From a virus: a stretch of 64,000 nucleotides of DNA. Of the stretch, positions 9 to 58,681 are shown one piece after another (the stretch's first letter is position 1; each line of letters begins with the position of its first letter). Under the pieces are notes generated by a model. The model had not been told where the DNA came from. It was given only the letters and a program-made list of their open reading frames with translations, and did not search any database. Location of the stretch: IMG/VR virus record IMGVR_UViG_3300005340_000003, positions 1 through 64,000 of that record; one strand, given 5' to 3'. The position numbers and the translations under genes are program-made.

Positions 9-1004
9 GTGAACTATAATGACAACGTGGAATCCGCGAAGGCTTTTATTTCCAGTGCTAAGGCGGTTCCCGTCAAGGATACAAAGACGGTAATCCAGGA
101 CGGAAAACAAAAAACCGTAATTACGGAAACGCCTCAGCATGTAAATAGTTTCGGACAGGTAGTCCCCGAAAAAGATTTAGCAGACGCTTACAAATACGCC
201 ACGATGACTCCGAGTATGTGGCGGCACATGGGCAAGCCTCAGTTTGCCGAATTATCGAGGATTAAGCCCGGAAAATTTGGCGGGGGAATGACCGGTCCAT
301 TGAGCGAACCTGAAGTAACTGCAAAAACAACTGCTGTGACTACACCAACTGTTGTCGAACCCGAACCTTCGGCGATTGTGACCGAGACTAAGGAAATTCC
401 CGTGGACAAATCAACCGTAAAGGCACCTACAGAAGCGCAACAACGCGCCGAATTAGCGTTGGCGAGGTTTTCTTCGTCCAACGACGTGTTCAATTATTTG
501 CAACAGCGTGGATACGATCCGACCACAGTTACGTCCTGGGTGAATAGTTTTCTTCCCGAGATTCTGAAGAGCGGTGATCGTAAAACTTATGACGCAGCCG
601 TTGATGCCTGGTCCCAAGGTTTGCTCCGGCTTGAGTCTGGTGCCGCGATTTCGAAGCAAGAGAAAACTTGGTATGACAAAGCATTTTTCCCACAAGTGAA
701 CGACCCACCTACGGTGGTTGAAAACAAATCGAGGATGCGACGGGACATCGAACGAATGGTTGGAGAAATTGCACAGGCCGGAGGAATCGATTCTCCGGAA
801 TCGAAAGCACAAGTGGCCCGCATTGCGGACGAAGCCAAAAAGGTCTATTCTGAAGCCGGTGCTGCGGCTGGCGTTCCGCCAAAAGGTGCAGCTACACGTT
901 TCCGTCCTCAAACTGGAGGTGCTAATGTCGCTCCAGTCACCACACTTTCCGGAGGGACAAATCTTACCTACGTTCCCGGAGTGGGCTTCAAATACGTAAA
1001 ATAA
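9..1004 (+). CDS. Putative DNA-ejection/internal virion protein (5'-truncated by window edge)
   Basis: Frame is open from the window start. LLRLESGAAIS...FFPQVND...K.R.R resembles a motif of phage injected proteins. Stop overlaps the start of the giant ORF. Confidence 0.55.
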   Translation: MNYNDNVESAKAFISSAKAVPVKDTKTVIQDGKQKTVITETPQHVNSFGQVVPEKDLADAYKYATMTPSMWRHMGKPQFAELSRIKPGKFGGGMTGPLSEPEVTAKTTAVTTPTVVEPEPSAIVTETKEIPVDKSTVKAPTEAQQRAELALARFSSSNDVFNYLQQRGYDPTTVTSWVNSFLPEILKSGDRKTYDAAVDAWSQGLLRLESGAAISKQEKTWYDKAFFPQVNDPPTVVENKSRMRRDIERMVGEIAQAGGIDSPESKAQVARIADEAKKVYSEAGAAAGVPPKGAATRFRPQTGGANVAPVTTLSGGTNLTYVPGVGFKYVK

Positions 1005-4000
1005 TGCCCCTCGATCCGCTAATCGCCGACGTGCCGTATGCGTCAGAGAATCCGCCTCCTACCGAGACTCCGAGCAATGTTTTTCACACCGAAGGTCCAG
1101 AACTCGAACAAGGCGGGCCGGCAGAAAAACCTCCGTTACAAATCGCCCCAGGCACCCCGACACTCGACGAGATTAAAGAATACCACCGTTTAAACGGCAC
1201 GGTTAATCCGATCATCGATCTGAGTGCGGAGGACATCGCGAAATTAGCGATTAACGATCCGGAAAATTTCCAACTCAGTAAGGCCATGATCGAACTCCGG
1301 CCTCAGTGGAACAAGGAGATCGTAAATAAAGCCGCCGACGCTTACAACCTACTCGAACGTCGCGGTTGGAAACCGCCGAAAGACTTGGGATTTTCTCAGC
1401 TTCCGAAAATGGTGAAGGAAACCGTTGCTGGCGCTGCGGATTGGTTGGGCGCGGTAGCTAAAGGTTCATTCGGTGTTCCGGCTTCTTTGGCGATGGAAAA
1501 AATCGACGAACTTTCGGGAATTTCCCCGGCTATCGACATTCGCCGTCGCCAGGAACTTCAGCAAGGAGTTTCTGAAGCTGCTGCGGCTACGGAGGCCAGC
1601 GTTACCGGGCTCGCGTTCCTGGGCGAGAAAGCGTGGAACAAACTTTTCGGCAAGAAACCTGAACTGAAAAATCAGCAGGAAAAATTAGAATCGCTGAAGG
1701 CTTTTCTCATTCCGCACCTCGCGCACGAAACAATTTCGAAAGGCGGAGGACTCGTCCAATACAGCCCCGAGATTCAGGCGGAGCAAGCGCAAGCTGGATT
1801 AGCCATTAGACCGGAGGAAGTGAACAAGAAAATTGCCGGTGATCCGGTGGGATTTTTGGCTTTCGGTAAAGGTCTCGAAGGTGTCGCCGGCTTGGTTGGA
1901 GTAACGAAACCAGTCGCTACTGCGGTCAGTAAAATTCCAGGATTGAAAAAAGCTGCGGCTGCGGTTGCTCCGGAGAAAATTGCCGGTGGCGCAATTGAAC
2001 TTGCGGGTGGAGCGGTTAAGGGAACGGCTAAAGTCGCTGAAGTCGTCGCTCCGGTCGCCGTTCCGGTTATCGGCGCGGTCGCGGGTGGGGACGTTCTCTC
2101 CAACCTCGGTCACGCGGCTGCGGGGGCTATTACCGGTGGATTAACGGCGATTCGTGGAGTTAAGCCGGTTCAGGCTGCGGCTCGGGCCGTCCAAAAAGGC
2201 GGAGAAGCGATTAAAACTTTCGGTCGCGAAGTCGCCGGCAAGGAGCTTCCGACAGGCGCGACTTCCCAACTTGCTCGGGATGTTTTTCAATCGTTGCCGA
2301 GTGCAGCCGGCGAAACGGCCAAAGGCGCAACGCTCGATCTCGGGCTTGCCGCGCTTACCGCAACGACTCCGGAAGATCAACAAGGGTTGCAACTCGGAAC
2401 AATTCTCGGAGCAGCCCAAGGGCTCAGACGGACCGGCGCATGGGTTGTAAGTGGTCAGAAAATCGCTCCTCGTGCTTGGGGTTCAAAGGGTGCAGTCGGA
2501 ACTTCCGGCGACTTGCCAATTTTCGACCGCATGCACAATGCCGCGTATTCGAGTGCTTCTCCGGCAGTGCGAGAGCACATGAATGCAGTCAGGCAGTTTT
2601 TGAAAGGTATCGGTGGCGATACTGAAGCTTTCATGGCAAACCCGGAGAATGTCCGGACGGCGGCTGACGGTCGCGTGGTGAACACCGACATCGAGAAAGC
2701 ACTAATCGATTCAGGATACGACGCTGCCACGGCTGAAGATTGGGCGAAACAAAACGGGATGTTCACCAAGGAATTTGCGGTCCCGGGCAAACCCGGCCAA
2801 ACGAAGCGAGTAATCATTGTCGCCGACGCTGACGCTGCCCCACATGAAGCGAAGCACGCTTTTCAAGACGTAATCGGCGAACAGGCCAATACCGTCATTG
2901 ACAAAGTTATTCGCGATACCTATTCCGATCAGTGGGAACAACTCGGTCAATCGTATGCGGAACAACTCCTCGGACGCCGTTTAAACGTTGGTGAATCCTG
3001 GAGAAATGTTGTTCTCGATGCTTCCGGCGCGGGCAACGAAGCAGCGAATCTGAAGATTTCAATGGAAGCGGCGAATAAATTCGCTGCCGACAACGGCGCA
3101 TTGCCGAAACCCGGTGACATTGCGGAACCTCCGCCACTCGATCCCGGTCAATGGAAAACCATTTTATCGGCAGACGATGCCGGAGCTGCGGCGGATCGTT
3201 ACATCTCTCGCGAAATTGCCGCCGAGACCTTCGATTCGATTTTCAAGAACCTGGGCGCGGCACTACAGGAAAAAACCGGGCTCGTTCCGTGGCTGGCGAA
3301 GGTTGTCGCAGCGACGACAGAGGCTCTCGGAGGTGACAGTTTACGCGGTCGCGGGACCACCCTCGGTTTCCCGTTACAGGAACCCGTCGTTCAAGCGATT
3401 AAAGGTCAGGTTCGAGAATTCGTTCCGGAAATTAAACCAAAAGCTCCTGGTGGAATATCGCCAACACCTCGGGCCGGCGCTCCTGCGCCATTGCCGAGTG
3501 GATCGCCGGTTCCGTTTACGCCGGAGGATCGCGCAGTTGCAGCCGAGGAAACTCGAAAAATTTCCGAGGGCGCTTCCGATACTCCGAAGGCTGGCGGCAC
3601 ACGATCCGACAAGGAACTCCTCGGAGAAATCGCTGCTGCACAAGCTGGCGGAGACGCAGTTAAAATCAACTATTTATCGGCACCCGATGAGCCGGCTGCG
3701 GCAATCAGCAGTAACCGGAACGTCCGAAGGCAGTTAATCGAAATGTTTCGCACGATGCCTGCGGCTGCGCGGAAATTGTGGGAGAAGAACTTTTTTCCAG
3801 AGCGCGTGCGACGGACCGCAAAGGGCAAAATTCAAGTCGGCGGTTGGGCACCGGAAGTTTTCGCGGCCAACGCGCACAAGACTGCGGAAATACTTTCACA
3901 ACTCGATCCGGCTCTCAGTCCGTATGAAATCGATAGAGTCAACAAAACGTTTACGGAGGCCGGCTGGAAGCAGCTTTTCGAAGACACCCAAAAATTCGTC

Positions 4001-7000
4001 CGAAACCAAATGGCAGGACAAACTGGTTCCGGCCAGTCGCTTGTCGTTCCGAGACAGATAACCGAAGCTGGTTTTTACAAACCGCCCGAGACTGCTGGTG
4101 CAGGCGTGCTCGACCAACGCAACGCTGATTTTATCAGTGCGATGTTCGGGATGAAGCTTCCGGAAACGACTCGTGTTACTGGAGGCAAGACTCCATTGAA
4201 CATTGCCGGTCAGGTGATCTCCCAGGCGACGATCCCGGGACGAGTTGAAGCACCTGTTCGGGCGCGTCCGGAGGGCGGCGTTTATCCGGAACCGTTCGAA
4301 GGGTTCGCCATTTCCGAAGTGAATCCCTGGAGGGCGGAATTTGAACTGGCTGTTCAATCAGCCGGCAAAACACTACCATCCACCATAGAAGCTTTTCAAT
4401 GGCTGAACCTGGATAACATCAAGGAAGTTCAACACACTCCGGAGCAACCGCAATTTCGCGGGAACACTCTAACGTTGCAGGCGGGATTTCAACCGAAACC
4501 GAACGATCCTCGGGCAATTCGGTCTCCTGCGGTCCGCGATGATACCGGAAAAGTTTTTGAGGGCACTTGGCATGGTGACGCAATCGGCAATGCAAGCATG
4601 ATGGGAAGTCGGACTCGATATGACGATTTCGAACACGGTTACACCACCAACACTCCGGGGGAATTCCTTAGTCGCGAGGATGCGTTGAAGAGAGCCACGG
4701 AATTGAATCAGGTATCGAAAGAATTCTCAGACACGCGGGAGGGTCTCGAAGCTTTTGAATTTGGTAAGGCTAGACAGTTTCAGCCGCAACCAGCGAAGGA
4801 AATCGAAGTTGAAGGTCCGGATGGAAACAAATACAAGGTCCGGTTCGACGGTTACTACGATCTGACGGCCCTCGGTAAAGGATTCGTGCCGGCGATTACC
4901 GCCCTCGAAGATTTGCCGGGATCGCTCACCAAGCTATCGAGCGGAATGGGTAAATCGCTCACTGACGCCGGGTATAAGCTGCCGGAGTTGCCGGCACCTG
5001 AAGGGGAAGTCACACAATTTGCGCCGAGACGCCGAACCGACGATTACGAGACCCTGAATAAACAGTTCGCCCAGGAGCATCCGAATAACGCGGGTATGCG
5101 ATTCGTAGAGGGGTTTGAAAAGGCATATAGAAAAGACCCGGAGCTTAAATCCTTGATGGAGGGAGTCTATTTTCAAAGGTTGTCGAAAGACAATTTTCCC
5201 GATGCTTTTTACGATCAAGCTAAAAACATCGCAGACTCTTTTGGAAAGCCGACCAATAATGCTGAGACGGATTTGCAAAATTATCTTGCGGACACATATC
5301 CCGACTTAGTGGATGAAATCAATCTCTCCCAGGATTATTTTCAGTCATTGCTACTCACTCCAGAGAAGGAACTTCAACAAATCCCCGCTATCGTTGAAGC
5401 TAGACAAAATTTCGCCTTCGGCAAAATAGTGCAGGAAGGTTTCGATGCACGAGAAGCGGAACGTTTCCTCAACGACTGGCGCGATGAAGGGTATTCAGAA
5501 GTAGCGTCCAAGAATCCGGCACTCGCGAAATGGATCGACGATAATCTGCGCTCCGGCAGCGCACAGCAGGCCGCGCAGTTCCAGCCGAAGGCATCGGAGG
5601 AAGAAGGAGTAAGACGAGTGGTTTCTGCCCCAGGATTAGAGCACGGTGGAATTACTGAACCGATTTTGAGTTTTGTTGAACCTGGAGAATTTCGATCAAC
5701 TTTAAATCGATACCGGGATTGGTTGATGGATGTTAAGGGTTTGACTAAAGAAGAGGCAGAAACACGTCTCAGGGGAATCCTTCAGTTCCAACCTCGAAAG
5801 GAGGGCGAAGAAGTCCGAGTCGGAATTCCGAGTTTTCGCGCTACGGGAGGAAATCGTCCAAGTGGTGCCGCTCCGATGATGATGTTTAAGGATACGGGGG
5901 ACGAGACCCGGTATTTTAAGTTTTTGCAGGAAGTAAAGGGGATGACGGAAGAGCAGGCCGCAAACGAAATCTTACGTTTAAGCCAATTTCAACCGAGACG
6001 AAAAACTCCGGAGGAAGATAACATCGCGAAAATCGGCGATGAGTCTTTCGCAATTTTCTCCCCGCGCAGCCGCAAGGAAGAGAAAGACCAAATCGGACCG
6101 GTGCCCAGGCCAGCAATCGACCGCGAAGAGCGACGAATCCGTGGACTCACCCAGGAAGAACAGCAGACCCCGGAAACGGCATTCTCTCCGCGAAAACGCG
6201 AGAAGGAGGACGATCTCCGAATATTGCCAACGAGTTTCGGAGCGGCGAGCAAAGCCTGGATACTCCCGAATGGCAAGGTCGAACAACTCGGTGCTGAGTG
6301 GCATCACCAATGGCTCGACGAGCATCCGGAAATTCAGGCGAAATACGGTCTGAAGGTTCCGGCGTTTGAGGGGACCGATACTGAAGGCGTCCGAGAGGCC
6401 GCGTTGAAAAAGGGATTCTCTCGCGTCAACCTGGAGAATGGCAACCTCATCGTGGAAGCTCGCGAAAAGGATTGGCGCTCCGTTCGTCCGATTGTAGAAG
6501 ACATGATCGAGCGGAATCTCGATGACATCGACAAGTTCCGAGTGCATCTGTTGAATGATGCCGTGGACAAAGTGACCAAAAGTCTTTCCGAGAAGCTTTT
6601 CGACGCGGACACCGACAAGGAAAAACTCGACCGGGTTTACAATACCCTCTCCGAGCGTCCACAAACTGAACTTGAGACGAAGTTCCAACCGAAGACCACG
6701 AAGGAAGAGGATTTAACCGGAACGAAAATAGTCCCGCCAACCGCAAGTCCGATGGAACAGGCGTTGGTTCGGGCACTCGATGCCTGGGCGGAGAATCAGA
6801 AAAAGCAGTCGAAGAAAGACGCTGAGGAATGGCTGCGGACACATGGCGCTTTGCCGCCAGAGGGAGAAGTCGCTTTTCAACCGTCAACGGAAGTTCGGAA
6901 TGTTGCTAAAAAATATTCAGAGGAAGAAGGAATCGATTACAAACCTCTCGGTGCCCCGCTTGCCGTAAAAGAAGGTCTCGCAAAACGGATCGCTGATTTT

Positions 7001-8869
7001 TACGATACCGCGAAGCATGATCCGAACGATCCGGAAGTTGTGAAATCTTACGATGCTCTCGGTGAAGAGACAGTTAAACAATATCACGCGATTGAGGATG
7101 CGGGATACACCATCGAGCCCTGGAAAAAAGCGGGCGAACCATACGCTTCGAGTGCGGAAATGCTGAAGGACGTTCAGGAAAATAAACATCTTTGGTATCT
7201 TCCGACAACTGGGAATTTTCAAGATGCTGGAAATAACCTCATGCTTCGGCCTTCGGGAGTTGAGGGCGTTTCGTATAACGATTTGTTCCGTGCTGTTCAT
7301 GACTTTTTCGGTCATGCCCAAGAGGGATACCAATTCGGACCGAGGGGAGAGCTTAATGCCTGGAATGCTCACTCGGAGATGTATTCTCCGGAAGCGCAAG
7401 GCGCACTCGCGGCTGAGACTCTCGCACAGAATTCCTGGGTGAACTTCGGAAAACACATGCGAGACGAGGCCGGCAACATCCCCAAACTCGGAGAGGCCGG
7501 ATATAAACCATTACCCGAACGTCCGTTTGCTGAACAGAAAAACATCGTCATTCCGAAAGACCTAATTTCGGAAGCGAAACAATCGGCACAGTTTCAACCG
7601 CGTGACGACCAGGAACAACTTTTTGGCGGCAAGGAATACATTTCCCCGGCTAATTTCACTCGGGCCGAGTTGCTGGATCGTCATCCGGAAGCAATCGTTC
7701 CGAAGAACAGCAACGAAAAAATCGCCTCAGACATTACGGGTTCCCCGCTCTATCGCAAGTCCGACGATCCGGTTCAGGCGTTCGCGGATAAACTCGCCGC
7801 GTTCGCGAAGACGTATGCCGACAACCCGGTTTATCAACTCGGTCTCAAGTGGTATTCGGATTTCGTGCCGGCACTGAAGAAACAATTTGGAAAAGACGCT
7901 CCGATGATGGCGGAACTTCTCGCGGCATCGAGCCCGAATGAAACTCCGACACAGAACTTTTTCTATGCGGCGGATGCTCTTCAAGGCTTCCGATCCGGTC
8001 GCTTCGACAAAATCATCGACAAATTCAATCAGGGATTCGATTTGATGAAGGATGACAAGTGGCTAGGCTGGTATAACAAGGAATTGAAGGCCGGAAATAT
8101 CCCGGATGCTCCAGCTACACCGACTCCTGAAGCGTTCATGGCGCACTGGATTTTCAAGCACGGCCTGAAGCCGAAGCAATCGAATGGTGCGCTATACGGT
8201 TTTCACGGGAAAGCGATTCTTGAAGTAATGGCTCGAAAATGGATAAACGAAAACAAAGGACCGAAGGTCGCTAACTTCGTGCAGAATCTTCTCGGAACGG
8301 GCCACGAAGCGACCATCGACGTATGGGCTGACCGAACAATGCGCCGGCTCGGATATGCCGACACAAAAGATCGTTGGAGAATTTTACCGAAGAATGCTGA
8401 GGGTGTAAGTGATGCCGATTTCGAATTCGCGCAGCAAGCTTTTCGTGAGGCCGCGAAGCAACTCGGTATTAAACCGGATGCACTTCAGGGCGGTCTCTGG
8501 TTTGCCGAAAAGCAGTTGTGGGCTGATAATGGTTGGGGCCGGCTTGATCTCGGAAGTTACATGAAGGAGATGGAAAATTTGCCATTGATTCAGCAGTCAA
8601 TTAAGCAACGACTCAAAACCACAGAGTTGAAGAAAAAAGCTGTGCCGATGGAGCAAACTGGATTACAATTCCAACCAATGAACAAATATAGAATAGGGCC
8701 TTACGGACGGACGGACACGGTGGTAGAAGCCGAGAACACCGAAAAAGCTTTTAGAAAATACGAACGAGAACGGGGGGTTCGTAAAGGAAGCATTCAATCT
8801 AAAGTTTTGACTGTCCGTCCCGTGACTCCGGAAACCGACATCGAAGTTAAACCGAGGAATGTCCGATGA
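1004..8869 (+). CDS. Giant polyvalent virion protein (2621 aa): HExxH metallopeptidase plus multiple C-terminal cargo modules
   Basis: Gly/Ala-rich hydrophobic N-terminal region; HEAKH at 2843-2857 with downstream EIAAE; 12 F-[QSA]-P linkers between 4487 and 8677; late module with GPKVANFVQNL...TIDVW (HhH glycosylase-like). Confidence 0.7.
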   Translation: MPLDPLIADVPYASENPPPTETPSNVFHTEGPELEQGGPAEKPPLQIAPGTPTLDEIKEYHRLNGTVNPIIDLSAEDIAKLAINDPENFQLSKAMIELRPQWNKEIVNKAADAYNLLERRGWKPPKDLGFSQLPKMVKETVAGAADWLGAVAKGSFGVPASLAMEKIDELSGISPAIDIRRRQELQQGVSEAAAATEASVTGLAFLGEKAWNKLFGKKPELKNQQEKLESLKAFLIPHLAHETISKGGGLVQYSPEIQAEQAQAGLAIRPEEVNKKIAGDPVGFLAFGKGLEGVAGLVGVTKPVATAVSKIPGLKKAAAAVAPEKIAGGAIELAGGAVKGTAKVAEVVAPVAVPVIGAVAGGDVLSNLGHAAAGAITGGLTAIRGVKPVQAAARAVQKGGEAIKTFGREVAGKELPTGATSQLARDVFQSLPSAAGETAKGATLDLGLAALTATTPEDQQGLQLGTILGAAQGLRRTGAWVVSGQKIAPRAWGSKGAVGTSGDLPIFDRMHNAAYSSASPAVREHMNAVRQFLKGIGGDTEAFMANPENVRTAADGRVVNTDIEKALIDSGYDAATAEDWAKQNGMFTKEFAVPGKPGQTKRVIIVADADAAPHEAKHAFQDVIGEQANTVIDKVIRDTYSDQWEQLGQSYAEQLLGRRLNVGESWRNVVLDASGAGNEAANLKISMEAANKFAADNGALPKPGDIAEPPPLDPGQWKTILSADDAGAAADRYISREIAAETFDSIFKNLGAALQEKTGLVPWLAKVVAATTEALGGDSLRGRGTTLGFPLQEPVVQAIKGQVREFVPEIKPKAPGGISPTPRAGAPAPLPSGSPVPFTPEDRAVAAEETRKISEGASDTPKAGGTRSDKELLGEIAAAQAGGDAVKINYLSAPDEPAAAISSNRNVRRQLIEMFRTMPAAARKLWEKNFFPERVRRTAKGKIQVGGWAPEVFAANAHKTAEILSQLDPALSPYEIDRVNKTFTEAGWKQLFEDTQKFVRNQMAGQTGSGQSLVVPRQITEAGFYKPPETAGAGVLDQRNADFISAMFGMKLPETTRVTGGKTPLNIAGQVISQATIPGRVEAPVRARPEGGVYPEPFEGFAISEVNPWRAEFELAVQSAGKTLPSTIEAFQWLNLDNIKEVQHTPEQPQFRGNTLTLQAGFQPKPNDPRAIRSPAVRDDTGKVFEGTWHGDAIGNASMMGSRTRYDDFEHGYTTNTPGEFLSREDALKRATELNQVSKEFSDTREGLEAFEFGKARQFQPQPAKEIEVEGPDGNKYKVRFDGYYDLTALGKGFVPAITALEDLPGSLTKLSSGMGKSLTDAGYKLPELPAPEGEVTQFAPRRRTDDYETLNKQFAQEHPNNAGMRFVEGFEKAYRKDPELKSLMEGVYFQRLSKDNFPDAFYDQAKNIADSFGKPTNNAETDLQNYLADTYPDLVDEINLSQDYFQSLLLTPEKELQQIPAIVEARQNFAFGKIVQEGFDAREAERFLNDWRDEGYSEVASKNPALAKWIDDNLRSGSAQQAAQFQPKASEEEGVRRVVSAPGLEHGGITEPILSFVEPGEFRSTLNRYRDWLMDVKGLTKEEAETRLRGILQFQPRKEGEEVRVGIPSFRATGGNRPSGAAPMMMFKDTGDETRYFKFLQEVKGMTEEQAANEILRLSQFQPRRKTPEEDNIAKIGDESFAIFSPRSRKEEKDQIGPVPRPAIDREERRIRGLTQEEQQTPETAFSPRKREKEDDLRILPTSFGAASKAWILPNGKVEQLGAEWHHQWLDEHPEIQAKYGLKVPAFEGTDTEGVREAALKKGFSRVNLENGNLIVEAREKDWRSVRPIVEDMIERNLDDIDKFRVHLLNDAVDKVTKSLSEKLFDADTDKEKLDRVYNTLSERPQTELETKFQPKTTKEEDLTGTKIVPPTASPMEQALVRALDAWAENQKKQSKKDAEEWLRTHGALPPEGEVAFQPSTEVRNVAKKYSEEEGIDYKPLGAPLAVKEGLAKRIADFYDTAKHDPNDPEVVKSYDALGEETVKQYHAIEDAGYTIEPWKKAGEPYASSAEMLKDVQENKHLWYLPTTGNFQDAGNNLMLRPSGVEGVSYNDLFRAVHDFFGHAQEGYQFGPRGELNAWNAHSEMYSPEAQGALAAETLAQNSWVNFGKHMRDEAGNIPKLGEAGYKPLPERPFAEQKNIVIPKDLISEAKQSAQFQPRDDQEQLFGGKEYISPANFTRAELLDRHPEAIVPKNSNEKIASDITGSPLYRKSDDPVQAFADKLAAFAKTYADNPVYQLGLKWYSDFVPALKKQFGKDAPMMAELLAASSPNETPTQNFFYAADALQGFRSGRFDKIIDKFNQGFDLMKDDKWLGWYNKELKAGNIPDAPATPTPEAFMAHWIFKHGLKPKQSNGALYGFHGKAILEVMARKWINENKGPKVANFVQNLLGTGHEATIDVWADRTMRRLGYADTKDRWRILPKNAEGVSDADFEFAQQAFREAAKQLGIKPDALQGGLWFAEKQLWADNGWGRLDLGSYMKEMENLPLIQQSIKQRLKTTELKKKAVPMEQTGLQFQPMNKYRIGPYGRTDTVVEAENTEKAFRKYERERGVRKGSIQSKVLTVRPVTPETDIEVKPRNVR

Positions 8870-12862: not shown

Positions 12863-13491
12863 AACAGTTGATCTTTCTTTGGTTCGAGCACCACGCGCAA
12901 TTTCTTCAACGCGCATGAGTGCAGATTTTGGATGTGTTGCCGGGAGTAGCCGATTCGTTCGCCGATTTCGCCGAAGGAAAATCCAGACTCATACCTGAGT
13001 ATAAAAATGGCTCGCTCTCGGTCATTCAATACTCGAAATATAGCAGGTCGGAGACCGGCGAGCAACTCTTTAGTTTCGAGATTTGAGGTGTCGATTTCGC
13101 AGACTGTCGGCACCAAGGCGTTTCCGTGATCCGGATCAAGCTTTCCGGATTCACCTGGGGTAATGAAATCAATCGGGCAATGTTCCGCCTGCCGCACCAC
13201 TAATCGGCTTTTGAATTCCTTGCTGATTTGTCCTCTCAAATATTGTTTGCTAAAGGCGAAAAATGTTATCCCGTTCGATTTTCGCCGGCAATAGTTCTTC
13301 GCGGCCTGCCGCAACGCAATCCAACACATACTCGTCAACTCGCCGTCGTTCAAGCCGCCTCGGGAACAATGCCGAGCGTAAATGATCGCTTCCGACATAT
13401 TCGCGAGAGCGAGTTTGTCGAGAGCGCCTTTCGTCCCCTTTCGAATCAGCTTGTGCTCTTCGTCGAGGGTTATTGTTTGTGAAATCCTCAT
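12859..13491 (-). CDS. Sigma70-family RNA polymerase sigma factor
   Basis: Region 2-like IALRQAAKNY...FFAFSKQYLRGQI; region 4 LNDRERAIFILRY...SFGEIGERIGYSRQHIQNLHSCALKKLR. Confidence 0.85.
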   Translation of the reverse strand: MRISQTITLDEEHKLIRKGTKGALDKLALANMSEAIIYARHCSRGGLNDGELTSMCWIALRQAAKNYCRRKSNGITFFAFSKQYLRGQISKEFKSRLVVRQAEHCPIDFITPGESGKLDPDHGNALVPTVCEIDTSNLETKELLAGLRPAIFRVLNDRERAIFILRYESGFSFGEIGERIGYSRQHIQNLHSCALKKLRVVLEPKKDQLL

Positions 13492-15569
13492 TTTGGAAAT
13501 ATCCAGACTCTCGTTTTACTTTCCCCGGTTTCCGTGTAACATTTAATCACTCCCTCACGCTGGATTAGCTCAAGATACCGGTTTATCTGATCCGGCTTGA
13601 ATGATTTAATCAATCCGTCGTTCATCGGGTTCGCCTGTAGCAAGCGATAAAGCTGTGTGAATGTCCCGCGCCACTCAGTCGCTTCCGGCGTCATATTGAA
13701 GAAGGCACGCAACTCTTCGATCAATATTTCCTTGAGCGGTGCCGCCTTGCTCGTCTGGTGGGTTTGGTCGAGAAGATGCGGATCGTGATAAGCAGCAAAA
13801 CCATACCGCCCATCGCGAGGGATGTAGTCCGGAACTTTCCAGTTAAGCACGACACGGCCAAACACAGGAAGCTCAACAGCAAGAATTTTTTGCAGTTCAT
13901 ATCGTTCGGGAAATTCGATTTTGGCGGAGGTGCATTTGAAAACGCATGTCTTCTCTGCCGAGTTATTATCGAGGGCGCACAGAATCCGGCTAGAGGTGAA
14001 GTCTGTATTTGCTGTTACCAATATACGTCCCATCCACTCAACAGTCACGGGAACGCGGAACTTTTCGTTCACTCGGAATTCCTGGTTTGCCGCCGTTTTT
14101 TTCATCATGGCCGAGAATCGGTCATGGGCATTGATCGAGTTGCCGGGAGTTTCATCATCGATTACCCACAAAGGCACATGATAATTCTCCGAGCCAAATG
14201 AATCGCCCCGGACAATATAGTCGCTGGCGTCCACGAATCCGCCGACTAGTCGCCCAACAATGTGCCGGCCACAAAATGTCTTACCGCGATTCGGTTCTCC
14301 GAGGATAAAAACATTCTGTCCTGGGCGGGGGAGAAGTTCCACTGCGGACCGATAATAATGCTGGAGCCACGCCATGAATCTTTGAAACTGTTCCTCGGTG
14401 TCAAAAAGCTGCCGGAGAAATCGGATGATCCAAAGGTCATCGGAATTATGGTCGGCGGGCTGCACTACATTGTTTTTCCAGGTATTCAGCACTTTCCGAG
14501 TGTTGTATTCGATGAGCCCCGGCTGGCGGAAAACAAAGGGGGCCGCGCCGACTACCCGGGCATTTTCGTGAAGGTGGAAAAGTGTATCATCGATTTTCTT
14601 CTCGGGGATGCCGCAACCTTTCTTGAGGAAAATCTTCATCGCTGAGTCGTTTACGGATTGATAGATGCCGTCTATTTTTCGCCAGTAAGCTTGCCCGTCA
14701 TGGAAGATGTCGAGTGTCGCCTGGGTGATTGCTTTTTCGTTGATGTCCTTTGTGAATTCTTTGCCGAGGATTTCCGACCACGAATAGAACGGTTTTTCTG
14801 CGTGGGCCGAGAAAGTAAGCATCCCGTCTGATTTGACAATCGCAGATAGTGGACTAATGGAAGCGGGTATCCAAAATGATGGGCCTTGTGTATCGAGTTC
14901 AAAAGAAGCGGGCCAAGAAAAACCCGGATACCGCTCTCTAATTGCAGGCTCGATGGTGGATAGTGGAATTGTGTTTCCCTCCGCCACTTTGAATTTGAAT
15001 TTTTTGAGAGCTTCGACATAGAATGCCTGGAGTTTGTTTTCGTCTATTGGGGCTGAATCATGAACAGGTGTCCAAACCGCGCCGTTGCAATAAAGGCGGG
15101 TGGGCTCTTCAAAAGCATTCGAATCAAGACCCGGAAGTAGATCGAGATTAAGCCATTTCTTAGCGTGCTGCAAAATCCAAATGGCCAAGTCCGTCGTTTC
15201 GACCGGAAGCGGACGAGGGAGTAACCAGAGCAAACGGCAATTACCTCCAAGGGATCGCTCAATCCAGGATGGTTTAATTGACATGGACAGAATGGCTTCC
15301 CGAATTCGATCTTCGGGAATTGTGACATCGTAGTCGGCAACGAATCCGTGAATATATTTGGCAGGGTTGTCTTTGTTAATTCGCTGATTGTTGTTGGCGG
15401 GCTCAATGGCGGTGTAGAAATTCCAGTCGGTTGATGATGTGCGATACCAGATTTGTCTTTCGGTTTTGTCATGACAGATTTTTTCTGAGGGTTTCGGACT
15501 GTTGAATGTCCAGGGTTCGCAAGGCGTGAGCGTCTTGTCGAGGATGTTGTGGGAGTAGAAAAATTTCAC
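13488..15569 (-). CDS. Primase-helicase (N-terminal primase-like domain plus SF3/D5-like NTPase)
   Basis: FVADYD catalytic-like motif; Walker A GEPNRGKT, Walker B VIDDE, motif C VTAN; GTG start overlaps the pol stop. Confidence 0.8.
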   Translation of the reverse strand: MKFFYSHNILDKTLTPCEPWTFNSPKPSEKICHDKTERQIWYRTSSTDWNFYTAIEPANNNQRINKDNPAKYIHGFVADYDVTIPEDRIREAILSMSIKPSWIERSLGGNCRLLWLLPRPLPVETTDLAIWILQHAKKWLNLDLLPGLDSNAFEEPTRLYCNGAVWTPVHDSAPIDENKLQAFYVEALKKFKFKVAEGNTIPLSTIEPAIRERYPGFSWPASFELDTQGPSFWIPASISPLSAIVKSDGMLTFSAHAEKPFYSWSEILGKEFTKDINEKAITQATLDIFHDGQAYWRKIDGIYQSVNDSAMKIFLKKGCGIPEKKIDDTLFHLHENARVVGAAPFVFRQPGLIEYNTRKVLNTWKNNVVQPADHNSDDLWIIRFLRQLFDTEEQFQRFMAWLQHYYRSAVELLPRPGQNVFILGEPNRGKTFCGRHIVGRLVGGFVDASDYIVRGDSFGSENYHVPLWVIDDETPGNSINAHDRFSAMMKKTAANQEFRVNEKFRVPVTVEWMGRILVTANTDFTSSRILCALDNNSAEKTCVFKCTSAKIEFPERYELQKILAVELPVFGRVVLNWKVPDYIPRDGRYGFAAYHDPHLLDQTHQTSKAAPLKEILIEELRAFFNMTPEATEWRGTFTQLYRLLQANPMNDGLIKSFKPDQINRYLELIQREGVIKCYTETGESKTRVWIFPK

Positions 15570-17533
15570 TTGAGGTAATGGGGAACTTCCTTTGCTTCGG
15601 CTTTCACCGGCAACCCGGCACACCATTCTGGACAAACCGACATGATGCTTTCAACATCGTGTTTGGTGATGTGTTGATCCGTTTCGAGGATCGCCTCGTC
15701 GTGGCTGGAAAACAGAACGTCAATTCCGGATGTGTCATGTAGGGTTAATAAGTGCTCTGAAAATACGTCCCGCGCCATTCCCTGATCGACGTTCTCAGTC
15801 AGCTTGCCGCCGTAGCTCTCAAATCGACGGTCTCCACGGTCGAACGTAAACACGACTCGAAGCTCCGGCTTGCCGTCCGCATCGGGCTTGAGTCTCCGCT
15901 CACACTTGACCTTTTCATAACGTAACACCCGGCCAGAAGGGAGGACAACTCTTAAATCTGAGCCGACACTGCGTTTAAACATGCCATCCAGGTATGCCCA
16001 CAGCCCGGTTACTTTCGGATTCTGTTCGCGATATTCAGCGACGATCTTTTTGGCCCTCTGACCATAGCCGCTGACTTTTTTGCCGTCCACCTCGATCCAC
16101 TCCGGATCGTCTGCCGTTAAATCCATCCCGGTATAGTCCTGGGCCATGACGATGAACTTCTCCCATCCGGCCCCATATCCGAGCGCGAGAACCCGGGCTT
16201 TCACTTCCGCGTAATAGGTCGAGTCCTTATCGAGAGCAGGCTCGTTGAACCCAAGGGCGGTTCGAGCGTGAGCTTCATAAGGGCTCATGCCGGTTCGAAT
16301 CAAGTTGAGGGTCTTTTCATCCTTGGCAAGCCAGAGCAAACATCGAGGTTCGATCTGTGATAAATCCGACACAATCATTTTCTTCCCAGGTCGGGGAATA
16401 ATCAGGTGTCGGAAATCGATGGAATATTTCACCCAGGCCGGAAACGATTTGGTCTCTTTACGAATTTTCAAAGCTCCATCGATTACTTTTTCGTTCGTCT
16501 CCATCAGTCCGGATTGATCGCAGAGTATCGGTTTCTTCCGCATGTTCTGCATGTTGATTTTCGCGTCTCCGGACCACCTGCCTGTATGTGCTCCGAAATA
16601 CTTCAAACCAAATGGCATCGTCCCATCCGAGCGGAGACGTGCCTTGACCGTCAAAAACGATTTGTAGAGTTTGTTGATGCTGCGCCAGGACGATAATGCG
16701 ACGATCCAGGGATTGCTCTTCCGATACATCGTTTCCCACTCCTCGTAAGCCTCCTCTCCTTCGTGTTCCTTGACGGGCGGGCTTGGAATTCCTGATCGCC
16801 GGCACTGCTCTGCTATGCACTTCGTCGATGTCGGTTTAGTGTTGAAGTCCTCCCATGAATCATCGTCGCTGCCGTCATCTTCCATCCAGGGGATTAAGCG
16901 TTCGGTCGCCAGTTTCATTTCATGACTTTGGAGGATGTAATCGTTTAAGAGCTTCGTATCGATTTGCACTCCGCGCATACCCTGCTCGATGGTCATATTC
17001 GACAAACGCTTTTCTTTCTCTGGCCATTTATCGGAATGATCCGTCCAGAGTTTCCAACACCACCAAGGGTCTTTCCTTGCATAGTCGATCATCGTGGATC
17101 GCTGTTCCGGAGTAAAATCTGCCGGCCAATGTTTGCCGTTGGCGTCCTCCCGAGGGTCTTTCGATAATTTGATTTTGTATAGGTGTTCGACCGCATGAGC
17201 GAGAGCGCGACGGTTGCAGAGATAAGCTGTGAGATTGGCGCTACAATGCCATTCGAGGTAATTTACTTTTGGTGCCCAACCTCGAAGGACCATTTCATTG
17301 TAAACAGTGTTGTCGAAATATCGATTATGGCTAACGAGGATTTTTCCTTCGAGTGACGACCAAATAAAATCTTTCGGGGAGCCCGCCCAACAGGTCGATC
17401 CATCGGAGACGCTAATAATATACGGATCGAAAAGTTCGTGCCGGCAATACTGCTCCGCTATCATCGTCTTAACGGAGTATTTTAATTTCTTGCTGAAGAA
17501 GGTTTCGAAGTCCAGGCCGATTACGTTATTCAA
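15566..17533 (-). CDS. Family A DNA polymerase with 3'-5' exonuclease
   Basis: Exonuclease LDFET, HNRYFD, YARKD; polymerase HTGRWSG, DLSQIEPR, KARVLALGYG, HDE. Confidence 0.95.
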   Translation of the reverse strand: MNNVIGLDFETFFSKKLKYSVKTMIAEQYCRHELFDPYIISVSDGSTCWAGSPKDFIWSSLEGKILVSHNRYFDNTVYNEMVLRGWAPKVNYLEWHCSANLTAYLCNRRALAHAVEHLYKIKLSKDPREDANGKHWPADFTPEQRSTMIDYARKDPWWCWKLWTDHSDKWPEKEKRLSNMTIEQGMRGVQIDTKLLNDYILQSHEMKLATERLIPWMEDDGSDDDSWEDFNTKPTSTKCIAEQCRRSGIPSPPVKEHEGEEAYEEWETMYRKSNPWIVALSSWRSINKLYKSFLTVKARLRSDGTMPFGLKYFGAHTGRWSGDAKINMQNMRKKPILCDQSGLMETNEKVIDGALKIRKETKSFPAWVKYSIDFRHLIIPRPGKKMIVSDLSQIEPRCLLWLAKDEKTLNLIRTGMSPYEAHARTALGFNEPALDKDSTYYAEVKARVLALGYGAGWEKFIVMAQDYTGMDLTADDPEWIEVDGKKVSGYGQRAKKIVAEYREQNPKVTGLWAYLDGMFKRSVGSDLRVVLPSGRVLRYEKVKCERRLKPDADGKPELRVVFTFDRGDRRFESYGGKLTENVDQGMARDVFSEHLLTLHDTSGIDVLFSSHDEAILETDQHITKHDVESIMSVCPEWCAGLPVKAEAKEVPHYLK

Positions 17534-46681: not shown

Positions 46682-46787
46682 AAAGATTCATAACCAATCC
46701 GAGAACGGACACAGATGCCTTGATTGGAGGCTTCATTATTTCCGTGGCTGTCGCTACCGTGATAATCCTCATTGTGTGCGCTCTTAC

Positions 46788-47597
46788 ATGAAAGTTTACA
46801 GCTACATTCGGGTCTCGGGTCGCGGACAAGTCGGCGGGGAAGGCCCCGACCGCCAGCGTGAGAGCATCAACGCCTTCTGTGCGGCCCGAGGACTTTTCTC
46901 CAACGGCGAGTTTTTCGAGGCCGGCGTCTCCGGCACGGTCGATGGAATGGACCGCCCTGAATTCTCCGACATGATCGAGCGGATCGAATGTCTGCGTTTA
47001 AACGGCGCTGAATGCGACGGGTTCGTTATCGAGCGGCTCGACCGGTTGGCGCGTGATTTAATGGTTCAGGAGGTTCTACTCAGTGAATGCCGGAAGCGTG
47101 ACATTAAGGTTTTCGCTGCCGACCAGGGGGAACTTCTCGACCTCGCTTCGGATGCCGGCGATCCGACACGCAAGCTCATCAGGCAGGTTATGGGAGCCCT
47201 CGCGGAGTGGGAGAAATCTCAGACGGTTTTGAAGTTGCGTAAAGCGCGTCAGGCGGTTAAGGTTCGAACTGGACGTTGTGAAGGTGCCAAGCCGTATGGC
47301 GTCACTCCTGAAGAGCGGGGGATTTTGACGGCCTTGAAACTTTTCGTCCGTCCGGATAGCACTTTGAAGGACATCGCGTCACTACTTAACCGGGAAGGTT
47401 TTCATACCCGGCACGGCGGCACCTGGGACGAGAAGTCCGCATTCAGGGTGATGAAGATTGCCGGCGTGTGGCAGCGAAAGCCGACCGAGAATAATTTGAA
47501 GAATTTGGGTAAACACGCAAAAAATAAGCGGGAAGTCGGGGAGCATAGCCCCGCATTGCCTCTGGCATGTGGTGTAACAGTAGCACAACCGCACTAA
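46788..47597 (+). CDS. Serine recombinase (resolvase family) with C-terminal recombinase/HTH region
   Basis: YIRVS...Q, EAGVSG, RP, RLDRLARD, AEWE, PYG. Confidence 0.9.
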   Translation: MKVYSYIRVSGRGQVGGEGPDRQRESINAFCAARGLFSNGEFFEAGVSGTVDGMDRPEFSDMIERIECLRLNGAECDGFVIERLDRLARDLMVQEVLLSECRKRDIKVFAADQGELLDLASDAGDPTRKLIRQVMGALAEWEKSQTVLKLRKARQAVKVRTGRCEGAKPYGVTPEERGILTALKLFVRPDSTLKDIASLLNREGFHTRHGGTWDEKSAFRVMKIAGVWQRKPTENNLKNLGKHAKNKREVGEHSPALPLACGVTVAQPH

Positions 47598-55649: not shown

Positions 55650-56570
55650 ATGATCGAAATAGCGGATCACACCTCGGGACTCCCGGCCCTTCCGGTCGAT
55701 CCCCCCAGGACAATTAACGTATTCGACAAGAAAGTTATGGTCGCGCTGCCGTGGCACAAAGCATCGCATCCGATCACCGCTTTCTGTGTAGCGCAATTAC
55801 TCGACAAACGGCGCACATCGAGCGTGCTGAATTTTGGTGATGCGTTCGTGGCGCACTCGCGAAACAGCATCGTGGATGCTTTTCTGAAGACCGACCTAGA
55901 CTATATCCTCAGTATCGACGACGATATGGTTCTGCCGATAGGGAACGCGGAGTGGTTCAAGCTGTATTCGGGGTGGAAATGGATGGGAGACAGTTTTGCC
56001 GGCTTGAATACCATCGACAGATTGACGTCACACAAAAAGTCCGTGGTCGGGGCGTTGTATTTTGGCCGATATATCCACGGTCCACCGGTTTTTGCCGAGG
56101 GAGTGAACGAAGAAGTGGCAAAAATGGTTCGATCAGGCCCGCACGACCGGCTGATGGCGACGAATTGGGTGGGCACAGGCTGCATTTTGATTCATCGGCA
56201 GGTTTTTCTCGACATTGAAAAGCGTTTTCCGCGCCTTGCGCGTGACAACTCAGGGAAATATGGCCAGTGGTTCACCAGTTCCGAACACGGAATCATGGAA
56301 GGTATCGACAGAATGCGCGACATGCTCTCAAAAGGGCCGATGGACGGTCAAAAAGCGATGAAGGCATACGAAATGGCCGAGGGACTTGCCGCAAAAGCGA
56401 GACAATCGAGCGGCCTGGGCGTCGGTGAAGACGTTATTTTCTGCCGGCGAGCCCGGGAATGCGGTCACGAGGTTTATGTGGACCTCGGACTCGTCGCGGG
56501 GCATGTCGGACACTGCTGTTACGGACCGAAAAACACTTTTCAACGACCAACCGATGCGAAATCCACCTAA
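55650..56570 (+). CDS. Glycosyltransferase (GT-A, GT2-like)
   Basis: SRNSIV, SIDDDM, VGTGCILIHR, GEDVIFC, GH. Confidence 0.85.
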   Translation: MIEIADHTSGLPALPVDPPRTINVFDKKVMVALPWHKASHPITAFCVAQLLDKRRTSSVLNFGDAFVAHSRNSIVDAFLKTDLDYILSIDDDMVLPIGNAEWFKLYSGWKWMGDSFAGLNTIDRLTSHKKSVVGALYFGRYIHGPPVFAEGVNEEVAKMVRSGPHDRLMATNWVGTGCILIHRQVFLDIEKRFPRLARDNSGKYGQWFTSSEHGIMEGIDRMRDMLSKGPMDGQKAMKAYEMAEGLAAKARQSSGLGVGEDVIFCRRARECGHEVYVDLGLVAGHVGHCCYGPKNTFQRPTDAKST

Positions 56571-57306
56571 AACCGATAAAATCCTGATCGCTCTCCAGTT
56601 TTGGAACGGAGATAAGCCCTATGCCATGCACCTTGCGAGGCTTCTTGCCGACATCGAGCCGGCCATGTGTCAAAAAGCGGATTTTCTGTTCGTTAGCCGG
56701 TTCGATTGCGATCACGATCAGGCTACGATCAATTATGTGGCACGAAAATTCAACACTTTCTCGTATGTGTCGAAGCGACGAGGCACCGGCTGGCCCTCCG
56801 GGTGCAACGCGACGTTTTTCGGAACCCTGGAGTGGTTCTATCACAAGAAAAACATGGGACAGATACTTCCTTACAAGTCGATTTTTCTTTTTGAGGCGGA
56901 TGGAGTGCCGATGTCCCTCGGATGGATCGACGGCCTAAGTAAAGCCTGGGACAATGCAAATTCCGTGAAGCCCGTTTGCATGGCCGGCGCGTGGTTGGAG
57001 AACGGACCGATCCCGGACTGTGGACACATCAACGGAAACGCGATGATGACAGGTGATTTGAAATTCTTGCGCTGGCTCGTAACTCGCGTCACTGATGTTT
57101 CGGTAAATGTCGGTTGGGATTACATTCTCGCGCCTCAGTTTAAACAACACGGATGGGCAAATCTCCCGCAAGTGAAAAGTGTGTGGAGACAACCGCTGAC
57201 TGAAGAAATTTTTCTTCGACAAATCGAAGAGGGGACGCTCTGGTGGCACGGGTGCAAGGGCGATGCGGGAATCAAACTGGCGAGAAAATTCTTACTCGGA
57301 CAATGA
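56554..57306 (+). CDS. Putative glycosyltransferase (GT-A)
   Basis: FLFEADGVP metal-binding motif; HINGNA; WD; C-terminal HGCK. Confidence 0.6.
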   Translation: MRNPPKTDKILIALQFWNGDKPYAMHLARLLADIEPAMCQKADFLFVSRFDCDHDQATINYVARKFNTFSYVSKRRGTGWPSGCNATFFGTLEWFYHKKNMGQILPYKSIFLFEADGVPMSLGWIDGLSKAWDNANSVKPVCMAGAWLENGPIPDCGHINGNAMMTGDLKFLRWLVTRVTDVSVNVGWDYILAPQFKQHGWANLPQVKSVWRQPLTEEIFLRQIEEGTLWWHGCKGDAGIKLARKFLLGQ

Positions 57307-58025
57307 GCAAATTACTTGTCGCAATTTCCGGATATGACGGAGATCGTCATCAAATCGAAAGCAACTGGCAATGCTATGAGCATCACAACAGCCCGGTCCT
57401 GGTGCTGTCCCCGAAGGACGGAGCAATCGACCGCATGAATTCCGCAAAGTGTATTTCAATCGGAGCGAAGGGCTGGATCGGGGCGCATACGCTTTATCGC
57501 CAGCGTCGGTTCCTTCAGATGATCCTGAATGAACCTGGGGAATTTGTTTTGTTCAACGACGCGGATTCGGTGTGCCTTTCTCCGCAAATTCCAAAATACC
57601 TTTACGATTCTCCGGGAGTTTTCTGGTCGAACGAAGTCAGAGACACGAATCCAGCCGCCTCCAAACTACCGAAACTTGCGTTTCAACCGCCGTATTTTTT
57701 CTCTAAGAGCGTTCTCCATTCGCTCGTCAGATCGTCTGCAACTCCGGCACACTCCTTCACTCAACCGAGCCCCGAAGGTTGGCCGATGCCACTTCCAACC
57801 GAGTGTATCGACCATTGGATGCTTCAGGTGGTTTACGCGGCGAATTTACCTCACAGAAGTTTTCCGGATGGAGCGAGCTTTGAGACGACCAGCCAGCACG
57901 GACTCGATACGATGTCCGAGCATGTGCGGGCACACGGGAAGATTTTCATTCATCAAGTGAAAACTCGTCCGGTGCTCGACCGTCTTCTCGCTGATAGACA
58001 AATTTTCCTCGATACTCACCGATGA
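57303..58025 (+). CDS. Putative glycosyltransferase, paralog A
   Basis: LFNDADS DxD motif; QPPY; IDHW; IHQVKT. Confidence 0.6.
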   Translation: MSKLLVAISGYDGDRHQIESNWQCYEHHNSPVLVLSPKDGAIDRMNSAKCISIGAKGWIGAHTLYRQRRFLQMILNEPGEFVLFNDADSVCLSPQIPKYLYDSPGVFWSNEVRDTNPAASKLPKLAFQPPYFFSKSVLHSLVRSSATPAHSFTQPSPEGWPMPLPTECIDHWMLQVVYAANLPHRSFPDGASFETTSQHGLDTMSEHVRAHGKIFIHQVKTRPVLDRLLADRQIFLDTHR

Positions 58026-58681
58026 ACGAAAGCACACTCATCGCAGTTTTCGGATACGGACCGAGCAAACACGGTTCGAACACCTGGGATTACAAAAATG
58101 CCGGGGATGTCGAACGTATTCGAATGCTCCTCCCATATTACGAGCATCACAAATGCCCGGTGGTAATCATGTCTCCCTCAGACGCGCCGATCCTCAAACT
58201 CGGTCCGCACATCTGCCGGCAGGCCGGCAAACGCGCATATACAGGGCAGGCGTCCCTCGACCGTCAACGGGATCATTTGAGAATCTTGCTTGAGTATCCG
58301 TTTAAACACTTCCTTTTATGTGATTCGGATTCGTGTTGTGTCACCCCGGAAATTCCACAGAATTTTTATGATGTGGACGCCTTCTGGTCGAACGAAATTA
58401 CGGAGCCGAGACCACATGAGTCGCCGTATCCTAAGATTGCGCTTCATCCTCCGTATTTTTGTTCTCGGGAAGTGCTTGGTAGGATGTTGACGGTTGCTGA
58501 TAGGATCGTGGCGCACCCGATTACTCCGTTCATTGACCATTATATGCTTCAACTCGTGTGTGAGTCCGGAGCGGAGCACCGGAATTTTCTCGACTACATT
58601 TTGGATCGTCGGATTATGATTCATCCGGTAAAGACGAAGGAAGACATTATCAAATGTCAGTGCATAGGAGAAACTAAATGA
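58022..58681 (+). CDS. Putative glycosyltransferase, paralog B
   Basis: LLCDSDS DxD motif; shares YEHH, FWSNE, PPYF, IDH.MLQ and IH.VKT with the upstream ORF. Confidence 0.6.
   Translation: MNESTLIAVFGYGPSKHGSNTWDYKNAGDVERIRMLLPYYEHHKCPVVIMSPSDAPILKLGPHICRQAGKRAYTGQASLDRQRDHLRILLEYPFKHFLLCDSDSCCVTPEIPQNFYDVDAFWSNEITEPRPHESPYPKIALHPPYFCSREVLGRMLTVADRIVAHPITPFIDHYMLQLVCESGAEHRNFLDYILDRRIMIHPVKTKEDIIKCQCIGETK

Follow-up and report, generated by a model that had tools for sequence, protein, structure and literature searches.

Polyvalent proteins of phages and plasmids are described in the available text of Iyer et al. 2017 (PMC5512222) as giant multidomain chains that combine an HExxH...E peptidase with variable enzymatic cargo, and their processing by these metallopeptidase (MPTase) domains was predicted there. 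The protein considered here is encoded in a window of 64 kb, the first 64,000 nucleotides of a 74,598-bp IMG/VR virus record (IMGVR_UViG_3300005340_000003). An earlier reading of the DNA alone (hereafter the original prediction) had singled out its gene (1004..8869, + strand, 2621 amino acids (aa)) as a candidate self-cleaving, injected polyprotein consisting of an HExxH peptidase and 12 cargo modules delimited by F-[QSA]-P. The giant protein is a member of the phage-type polyvalent class as the available 2017 text (PMC5512222) delineates it, with many unrelated domains that vary between relatives (at least nine folded units in 2621 aa; 118 homologues) and with what we take to be a zincin-like MPTase domain, in which an HExxH helix is joined by a Glu on a later helix. 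Whereas no cleavage motif or joint code is defined in that text, the joints here carry a defined peptide with lineage variants, and the family of the N-terminal half (N-half), unlike the MPTases described in 2017, has neither a Pfam match nor a cultured member. Nucleotide positions below are those of the window unless marked as genome positions, and all features of the giant gene lie on its + strand.

Several better known systems share parts of this design. The MARTX toxins of Vibrio follow the same logic as the giant phage protein, in that one giant polypeptide holds a delivery part, a built-in protease and strain-variable effectors that are cut apart at inter-domain linkers. The MARTX protease, however, is an inositol-hexakisphosphate-activated Cys protease that cuts after Leu, of another class than the domain described here and with no homology to it, and the toxins are secreted against eukaryotic cells. 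By analogy only, RNA-virus polyproteins (picornavirus 3C, potyvirus NIa) also have a built-in protease and a repeated code at module borders that varies by lineage, but these belong to eukaryotic viruses, rely on Cys/Ser chymotrypsin-like proteases and contain fixed replication and capsid modules. T4 gp21 is reportedly a prohead protease that processes internal proteins. Prohead-protease processing (T4 gp21; SPN3US gp245, PMC10052503) is similar in that virion cargo is trimmed at short consensus sites; there, a separate protease acts on many head proteins, typically with one cut each, whereas here the motif occurs 12 times in one gene with the protease domain in the same chain. A defined cleavage site for any polyvalent protein was found neither in the literature searched nor in the available part of the Iyer et al. 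2017 text, and searches on QFQP, DUF7178 and phage polyprotein processing returned nothing on the joint motif. Relative to the searched literature, the novelty lies in the defined joint code, in how it is rewritten between lineages and in the uncultured N-half family; the kind of protein is itself known.

The 12 in-frame F-[QSA]-P sites occur at exactly the nucleotides originally reported, and none precedes aa 1162. Joint 1 (G-FQP, aa 1162, 4487..4495) forms the border between N-half and cargo and belongs to the sequence NTLTLxAGFxP, found in most of the 118 homologues. It is followed by joint 2 (Q-FQP, aa 1259, 4778..4786), joint 3 (Q-FAP, aa 1339, 5018..5026), joint 4 (Q-FQP, aa 1526, 5579..5587) and joint 5 (Q-FQP, aa 1595, 5786..5794), the last of which separates two tandem paralogous modules. 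A disordered linker begins at joint 6 (Q-FQP, aa 1662, 5987..5995), contains joint 7 (I-FSP, aa 1685, 6056..6064) and ends at joint 8 (A-FSP, aa 1727, 6182..6190). The remaining sites are joint 9 (K-FQP, aa 1894, 6683..6691), joint 10 (A-FQP, aa 1958, 6875..6883), joint 11 (Q-FQP, aa 2197, 7592..7600) and joint 12 (Q-FQP, aa 2556, 8669..8677). The spacings calculated from these sites (97, 80, 187, 69, 67, 23, 42, 167, 64, 239, 359 and 66 aa) are correct, and the joints do mark modules. Twelve cargo modules is nonetheless an overcount, as aa 1662-1726 (the 23- and 42-aa intervals) form the disordered linker with its three motifs; the folded cargo units number about nine. Compared with expectation from composition, the protein contains nine FQP (0.37 expected), six QFQP (0.018 expected) and 12 F[QSA]P (1.6 expected). 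A chance origin of the motif was ruled out by these counts and those from the family. QFQP is absent from the other real open reading frames (ORFs) of the 74.6-kb genome, where FQP and FKP are scattered, free of context and mostly in antisense frames.

Pfam models matched the giant protein only at DUF7178 (aa 2412-2501), and PHROGs returned two families of unknown function. With tblastn against 50,697 phage records, the match was confined to the module at aa ~1950-2200 and the N-half was not found in cultured phages; no relative of the giant protein appeared in 185,579 bacterial and archaeal genomes. Metagenomes, by comparison, yielded 118 homologous proteins of 1447-3510 aa, with 31-69% identity over aa 450-1165, many of them from contigs of about 70-78 kb, and 34 related IMG/VR loci were collected. 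A library of 1.84 billion protein representatives contained 192 clusters at 50% identity, nearly all of them giants that match at about residues 430-1200. Most short hits among these clusters start within the matched region and so look like fragments rather than stand-alone N-halves. Throughout the family the N-half is conserved while the C-terminal half (C-half) is variable and reordered between homologues. The precomputed cargo Pfams differ from protein to protein and include GNAT, SAM methyltransferases, radical SAM, His phosphatase, ART-PolyVal (PF18760), DUF3293, a phage L5 gp82-like domain and DUF7178.

Family members as distant as about 30% identity carry the motif. Counted over the C-halves of all 118 proteins, QF.P was seen 344 times against 18 expected, and an independent set of 68 further representatives gave 165 against 18.8 expected. 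QFQP (145 copies in 71 proteins) was the only strongly enriched tetrapeptide to recur within proteins, the remaining enriched tetrapeptides being essentially once-per-protein domain motifs. QFxP sites are also unevenly placed, 292 of them following the first joint and 18 preceding it. The middle residue x is mostly Q, with K/R, E, A, S or M/L preferred in some lineages, and joints without F often read QAQP (90 copies), QLQP, QYQP or QMQP. After inspection of joints that lack F-x-P, the strict F-[QSA]-P reading was replaced; the family-wide motif is better written as Q-[F>>A,L,Y,M]-x-P, and K/R and acidic residues usually come next. An F-x-P lies within 45 aa at 93% of the M1 joints in homologues and at 43-51% of those before modules M7, M9 and M10.

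The original prediction had also proposed that the DNA encoding the motif may act as a shuffling junction. Under this explanation the CAGTTYCARCCG-like sequence would supply microhomology for the shuffling of modules, with the peptide as a by-product, in keeping with modules that are reordered, duplicated or missing exactly at the motif. The six QFQP sites, however, use six different 12-mers with none in common and vary at all four synonymous positions, which indicates selection on the peptide and not on the DNA. The peptide also persists at about 30% protein identity, where DNA is saturated, and x changes by lineage while F and P stay. Twelve bases are in any case too few for homologous recombination. 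A DNA-level joint is thus largely refuted, and we consider it highly improbable.

Two further expectations of the original prediction, that homologues would exchange cargo at the motif and that motifs would fall in linkers, were both upheld. Sites 1162, 1259, 1727, 1894, 1958, 2197 and 2556 have starts or ends of BLAST homology blocks (this protein against the family) no more than 12 aa away, with 47 block ends that close to joint 2, 58 block starts to joint 8 and 65 block ends to joint 12. In all-against-all comparisons 21% of internal block ends fell within 8 aa of a site, as compared with 5.4% under the null (at most 7.0% in 200 shuffles), and blocks spanning a site were three times rarer than expected (5.6% vs 16.4%). 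An AlphaFold2 (AF2) model of the cargo (aa 1650-2215, 33 sequences) had a predicted local distance difference test score (pLDDT) of 77 and dropped below 50 only at aa 1662-1733, 1885-1912, 1953-1956 and 2196-2215; sites 1662, 1685, 1727, 1894, 1958 and 2197, all six, lie in or at these segments. In homologues P0014, P0077 and P0019, none of 31 Q-type sites falls within any of the nine Pfam envelopes, which together take up 21% of the sequence (P about 7e-4), and P0077 has a QFLP in the 26 aa that separate ART-PolyVal from His_Phos_1.

Comparison with close relatives shows how the joints change. The closest, L003, is 58.5% identical over the first ~1255 aa (BLAST), and the N-halves of L003 and P0002 are 58-69% identical to that of this protein. 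Module order differs between this protein and L003, as aa 1956-2205 here correspond to L003 1537-1794 and aa 1727-1896 to L003 1786-1957. The block ends in this comparison fall at motifs, and M1 is missing from L003, with two motifs left 7 aa apart. Residue x has changed from Q to K at joints 1162 (L003 1184), 1259 (L003 1191) and 1894 (L003 1955), from A to K at joint 1339 (L003 1271), from Q to R at joint 1958 (L003 1539), and from S/Q to K at joints 1727 and 2197, both of which correspond to L003 1786. Overall L003 has seven FKP, one FRP and no FQP, against nine FQP and no FKP in this protein. As far as aligned sequences can tell, this concerted switch at six orthologous joints (L003/P0002) is evidence for a putative single reader of all sites. 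In the polyvalent protein of cyanophage Pag-Yong1, an M9 homologue stands behind a different N-part and is without repeated QFxP, so the motif travels with the N-half and not with the modules.

A candidate for that reader lies within the N-half itself. The AF2 model of aa 480-1180 (43 sequences, mean pLDDT 84.7) shows two domains with a disordered, Pro-rich linker between them (aa 808-834, 3425..3505; pLDDT <50, model residues 329-355; Pro content 24% in aa 810-850). Domain 1, delimited at aa ~494-809 (2483..3430) from the AF2 model and VIA-align, has a beta-sheet, an HExxH helix and later helices that bear Y733 and E737. The HEAKH sequence first noticed at 2843..2857 (aa 614-618) has been borne out, with H614 and H618 as predicted zinc ligands and E615 as predicted catalytic base. 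Its downstream Glu is E737, part of a Y733-x3-E737-x3-E741 helix (3200..3226) that would provide the catalytic Tyr and the third zinc ligand. H614, E615, H618 and E737 are invariant in 116/116 aligned homologues, and Y733 (109/116), E741 (108/116) and D744 (105/116) are nearly so. VIA-align scores of domain 1 were modest, with ~150-160 residues aligned to the Certhrax N-domain (Z 6.0), PPEP-2 (Z 5.8), PPEP-3 (Z 5.5) and anthrax lethal factor (LF; Z 5.3). Foldseek searches of the N-half and cargo models against the PDB gave nothing at E <= 0.001, a profile search of PDB sequences gave no peptidase, and Pfam peptidase/MPTase models did not match the giant protein. From the invariant tetrad combined with the modest structural scores, we take domain 1 to be a zincin-like MPTase. 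An F-T-P also occurs at 3515-3523 (aa 838-840), in the Pro-rich linker between the two N-half domains; because its F is not conserved in the family consensus, it is probably no regular joint.

The PPEPs and anthrax LF belong to MEROPS family M34. The domain may resemble PPEP-1/2/3 and LF (6fpc, 9g0j, 1yqy) in fold and in the combination of HExxH, Tyr and a later candidate Glu ligand, but Z 5.3-5.8 is too low a score to rule out a merely common arrangement. PPEP-3 uses Tyr190 as catalytic residue and Glu197 as third ligand, to which Y733 and E737/E741 here are similar, and PPEPs favour Pro at P3' (PMC12828418). Sequence homology to the LF/PPEP (M34) catalytic domains was not detected by the profile search of PDB sequences or by Pfam. 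PPEPs and LF also differ in that bacteria secrete them, as enzymes or toxins, to act on other proteins and they are not built into a polyprotein, and PPEPs need Pro at both P1 and P1', which the joint motif does not have.

Combined, these observations suggest a mechanism in which the built-in zincin cuts its own chain at the joints. The protein would run from a hydrophobic Gly/Ala-rich part through the zincin and the domain with a WYL-like barrel to about nine folded cargo modules. Each module joint would be a short disordered linker with (Q)-F-x-P followed by basic and acidic residues; the zincin (H614-E615-x-x-H618 ... Y733, E737) would read this peptide and cut there, and the modules would be freed as separate proteins, either while still in the capsid or once ejected into the host. 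By analogy, the scissile bond would lie just before Phe, between Q and F of Q-F-x-P (between G and F at joint 1, G-F-x-P), so that F-x-P would occupy P1'-P2'-P3'. Zincins generally accommodate a hydrophobic residue in S1', and it is for this reason, together with the preference of PPEPs for Pro at P3', that the cut is placed before Phe. A cut after Phe fits the conservation pattern equally well. Within the zincin domain, no column convincingly paired acidic residues in the K lineage with basic ones in the E lineages, as a specificity determinant would, and the independent lineages to compare were too few. A complex prediction of the zincin domain with a 35-aa joint peptide scored 0.02 and, having been run without controls, weighs neither way on binding.

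The identity of the protease could be otherwise. The motif might be cut by a divergent head-maturation protease or by a host protease, with the zincin acting on host targets or only at joint 1. Among phage internal and ejection proteins with known processing, most are cut by the prohead protease (SPN3US gp245, PMC10052503; T4 gp21), and the 2017 text (PMC5512222), in its available part, also allows for MPTases aimed at host proteins. Most structural genes of this phage are without a Pfam or PHROG match, so a protease could hide among them. Pfam and PHROGs, however, detected no protease family in the ~40 ORFs of the phage genome that were scanned, and the motif is absent from the other real ORFs, though a maturation protease usually trims capsid, scaffold or portal. 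The motif further follows the N-half and not the modules, and a host protease would leave the lineage-specific switches of x between close phages unexplained. We therefore judge cutting by another protease to be quite unlikely.

The motif might also remain uncut, as a hinge or as a linker element recognised by one shared partner (the portal, an N-half domain, or a factor for packaging or chaperoning), in which case the giant would act as a beads-on-a-string protein. According to the available portion of Iyer et al. 2017 (PMC5512222), N4 virion RNA polymerase, ArdC and TraC1 are transferred uncut despite their MPTase domains. A partner-binding motif would likewise change in concert and sit in linkers, and the AF2 model gives no sign of docking into the active site. 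Against this, a catalytic tetrad that is invariant in 116 sequences argues for an active peptidase in need of a substrate. The three copies within 65 disordered residues (aa 1662-1727) and the L003 copies 7 aa apart look more like leftover sites than like binding elements set at intervals, and the diverse enzymes in the cargo of relatives make independent action after release more plausible. An uncut motif appears unlikely to us on balance.

Several points weigh against self-processing by the zincin and hold our estimate down. Cleavage is inferred, not observed, for all members, and there is no cultured relative. The zincin call is built on an invariant motif and Z scores of 5-6, with Foldseek and Pfam giving no match, and the HExxH-to-Glu spacing of 119 aa is far longer than in PPEP or LF. 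AF2 leaves joint 1 outside the active site, in a tail of low confidence (pLDDT <50), and the low pLDDT of the cargo linkers is partly expected, as alignment rows had been cut at homology-block ends. F-x-P is present at only 43-51% of the M7, M9 and M10 joints, and many of the others have QAQP, QLQP or nothing obvious. The concerted change of x could in principle arise by duplication of joints rather than by co-evolution with a reader, and a protease too divergent for Pfam and PHROGs could sit elsewhere in the genome. Taking both sides together, we assign a probability of roughly 50% to the reading in which the built-in zincin cuts the chain at its joints.

The N-terminal 480 aa include Gly/Ala/Val-rich hydrophobic segments at aa 282-369 (1847..2110), where 19-aa Kyte-Doolittle windows reach 1.95, and G+A amounts to 32% of aa 150-480; these segments are a possible membrane-active part. 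Domain 2 of the N-half model (aa ~852-1159, 3557..4480), which is conserved more strongly than any other part of the family, contains a putative WYL/Sm-like beta-barrel. The nine best structural matches, each a WYL protein with ~81-93 residues aligned, include PafBC (Z 9.7), BrxR (Z 8.5), CapW (Z 8.4) and DriD (Z 7.4-7.7) in VIA-align. The barrel is built from discontinuous segments and has no sequence-level match to WYL. PafBC, BrxR, CapW and DriD are regulators of defence or damage responses. The domain ends in the conserved NTLTLxAG immediately before joint 1, and from its location between the zincin domain and joint 1, the WYL-like barrel might sense nucleic acid or a nucleotide and gate the protease.

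The cargo begins with M1 (aa 1162-1258), M2 (aa 1259-1338) and M3 (aa 1339-1525), which together span 4496..5578 and were assessed by homologue coverage: M1 is covered by alignments of ~83 homologues, and M3 rarely. M4 and M5 (5588..5986) are tandem paralogous modules of ~68 aa with 30% identity (E 3e-6), and each ends in ...KG(L/M)T(K/E)E(E/Q)A...LQFQP (5579-5986). Neither has a BLAST match among the other 117 family proteins, which points to a recent duplication of a module with its joint. M7 (6191..6682) is an alpha/beta domain, folded at aa 1734-1884 with pLDDT >90 and widespread in the family; its fold matches reach Z ~5 only. In the AF2 model, M8 (6692..6874) is small, with one long helix (aa 1916-1946). 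M9 (6884..7591; phrog_3170) is helical, carries HDFFGH...QFGPRGE motifs and is also present in unrelated phage proteins; a search of the ESM Atlas with M9 returned unnamed viral clusters only. M10 (7601..8668) contains DUF7178 (PF23802; phrog_3842) and is the commonest cargo of the family, and a 66-aa C-terminal tail (8678..8866) extends past the last joint. VIA-align of the cargo model gave gelsolin/ADF-like matches at Z ~5 and single-helix matches only, and accordingly no function was assigned to M7, M8 or M9. Cargo alignments of aa 1500-2621 and 1650-2621 with module fragments were set aside, as MAFFT had placed M7 fragments on M10.

A Q-F-G-P look-alike of the joint lies at 7331-7342 (aa 2110-2113), inside the confidently folded, conserved M9 domain. 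It is part of a FRAVHDFFGH...YQFGPRGE signature shared with phage proteins outside the family, namely those of Mycobacterium cluster C phages, gp205 of Rhodococcus phage E3 (annotated "structural protein"), and cyanophage "lysin" and polyvalent proteins. This Q-F-G-P is probably a buried, uncut copy.

The 50-bp direct terminal repeat at the record ends (genome 1-50 and 74549-74598) results from overlap in the assembly, and the record is therefore circularly assembled. An upstream 488-aa gene crosses the record ends (74086 to 1004), and its TAA shares one base with the ATG of the giant gene (..TAATG..). Gene order is maintained in the related loci: tail-like genes and the 323-aa and 488-aa genes always precede the giant gene (18-34 loci), and a gene of ~206 aa is always next after it. 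In none of the 34 loci do cargo modules occur as separate adjoining ORFs. The giant gene thus sits behind tail-like genes, and the M9 homologue of Rhodococcus phage E3 is annotated as a structural protein; from this gene position and family context we infer packaging in the virion and delivery with the DNA, as the original prediction had supposed.

Elsewhere in the genome, the DNA polymerase region (13488-17533, - strand) consists of two overlapping ORFs, 13488-15635 and 15566-17533. PHROG DNA polymerase families match only the 15566-17533 ORF, and the arrangement could represent a split polymerase, a frameshift or an intein-free split gene. A serine recombinase/invertase-like gene is located at 46776-47597 (phrog_95 integrase, phrog_125 DNA invertase); a search of bacterial genomes with the giant protein turned up no prophage copy of this phage family. 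The late gene block includes, at 55650-59646, a gene resembling glycosyltransferases and one for a nucleotide-sugar epimerase (phrog_540, E 1e-52). Two neighbouring paralogous tail-like genes, both phrog_4900, are found at genome 69996-72658 (L006 11997-14659); the second is weakly similar to the Mtd second domain (PF21916, E 4e-4), a possible pointer to a variable receptor-binding protein.

Polyvalent proteins are regarded as a major route for the delivery of ready-made anti-defence enzymes by phages and plasmids. Their processing by built-in zincins was proposed in 2017, and this family gives the proposal exact candidate sites, 12 here and hundreds in relatives. The change from Q to K/R at six orthologous joints is a natural variant of specificity and, together with an invariant catalytic site, makes the hypothesis testable. 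If it is true, the motif would let giant phage proteins be parsed automatically into functional units, most of which (M1-M10 here) are of unknown function, and the protein would provide a compact pair of protease and site with tunable specificity. A broader scenario, which we offer tentatively and would not bet on, is that these uncultured double-stranded DNA phages have a true polyprotein strategy, with a delivery part, a zincin that cuts before F in a private, lineage-rewritten Q-F-x-P code, swappable effectors and a WYL-like domain that may gate cutting, through a nucleic-acid or nucleotide ligand, until ejection. Under such a strategy, modules could come, go, be copied or change place simply by taking their joint with them.

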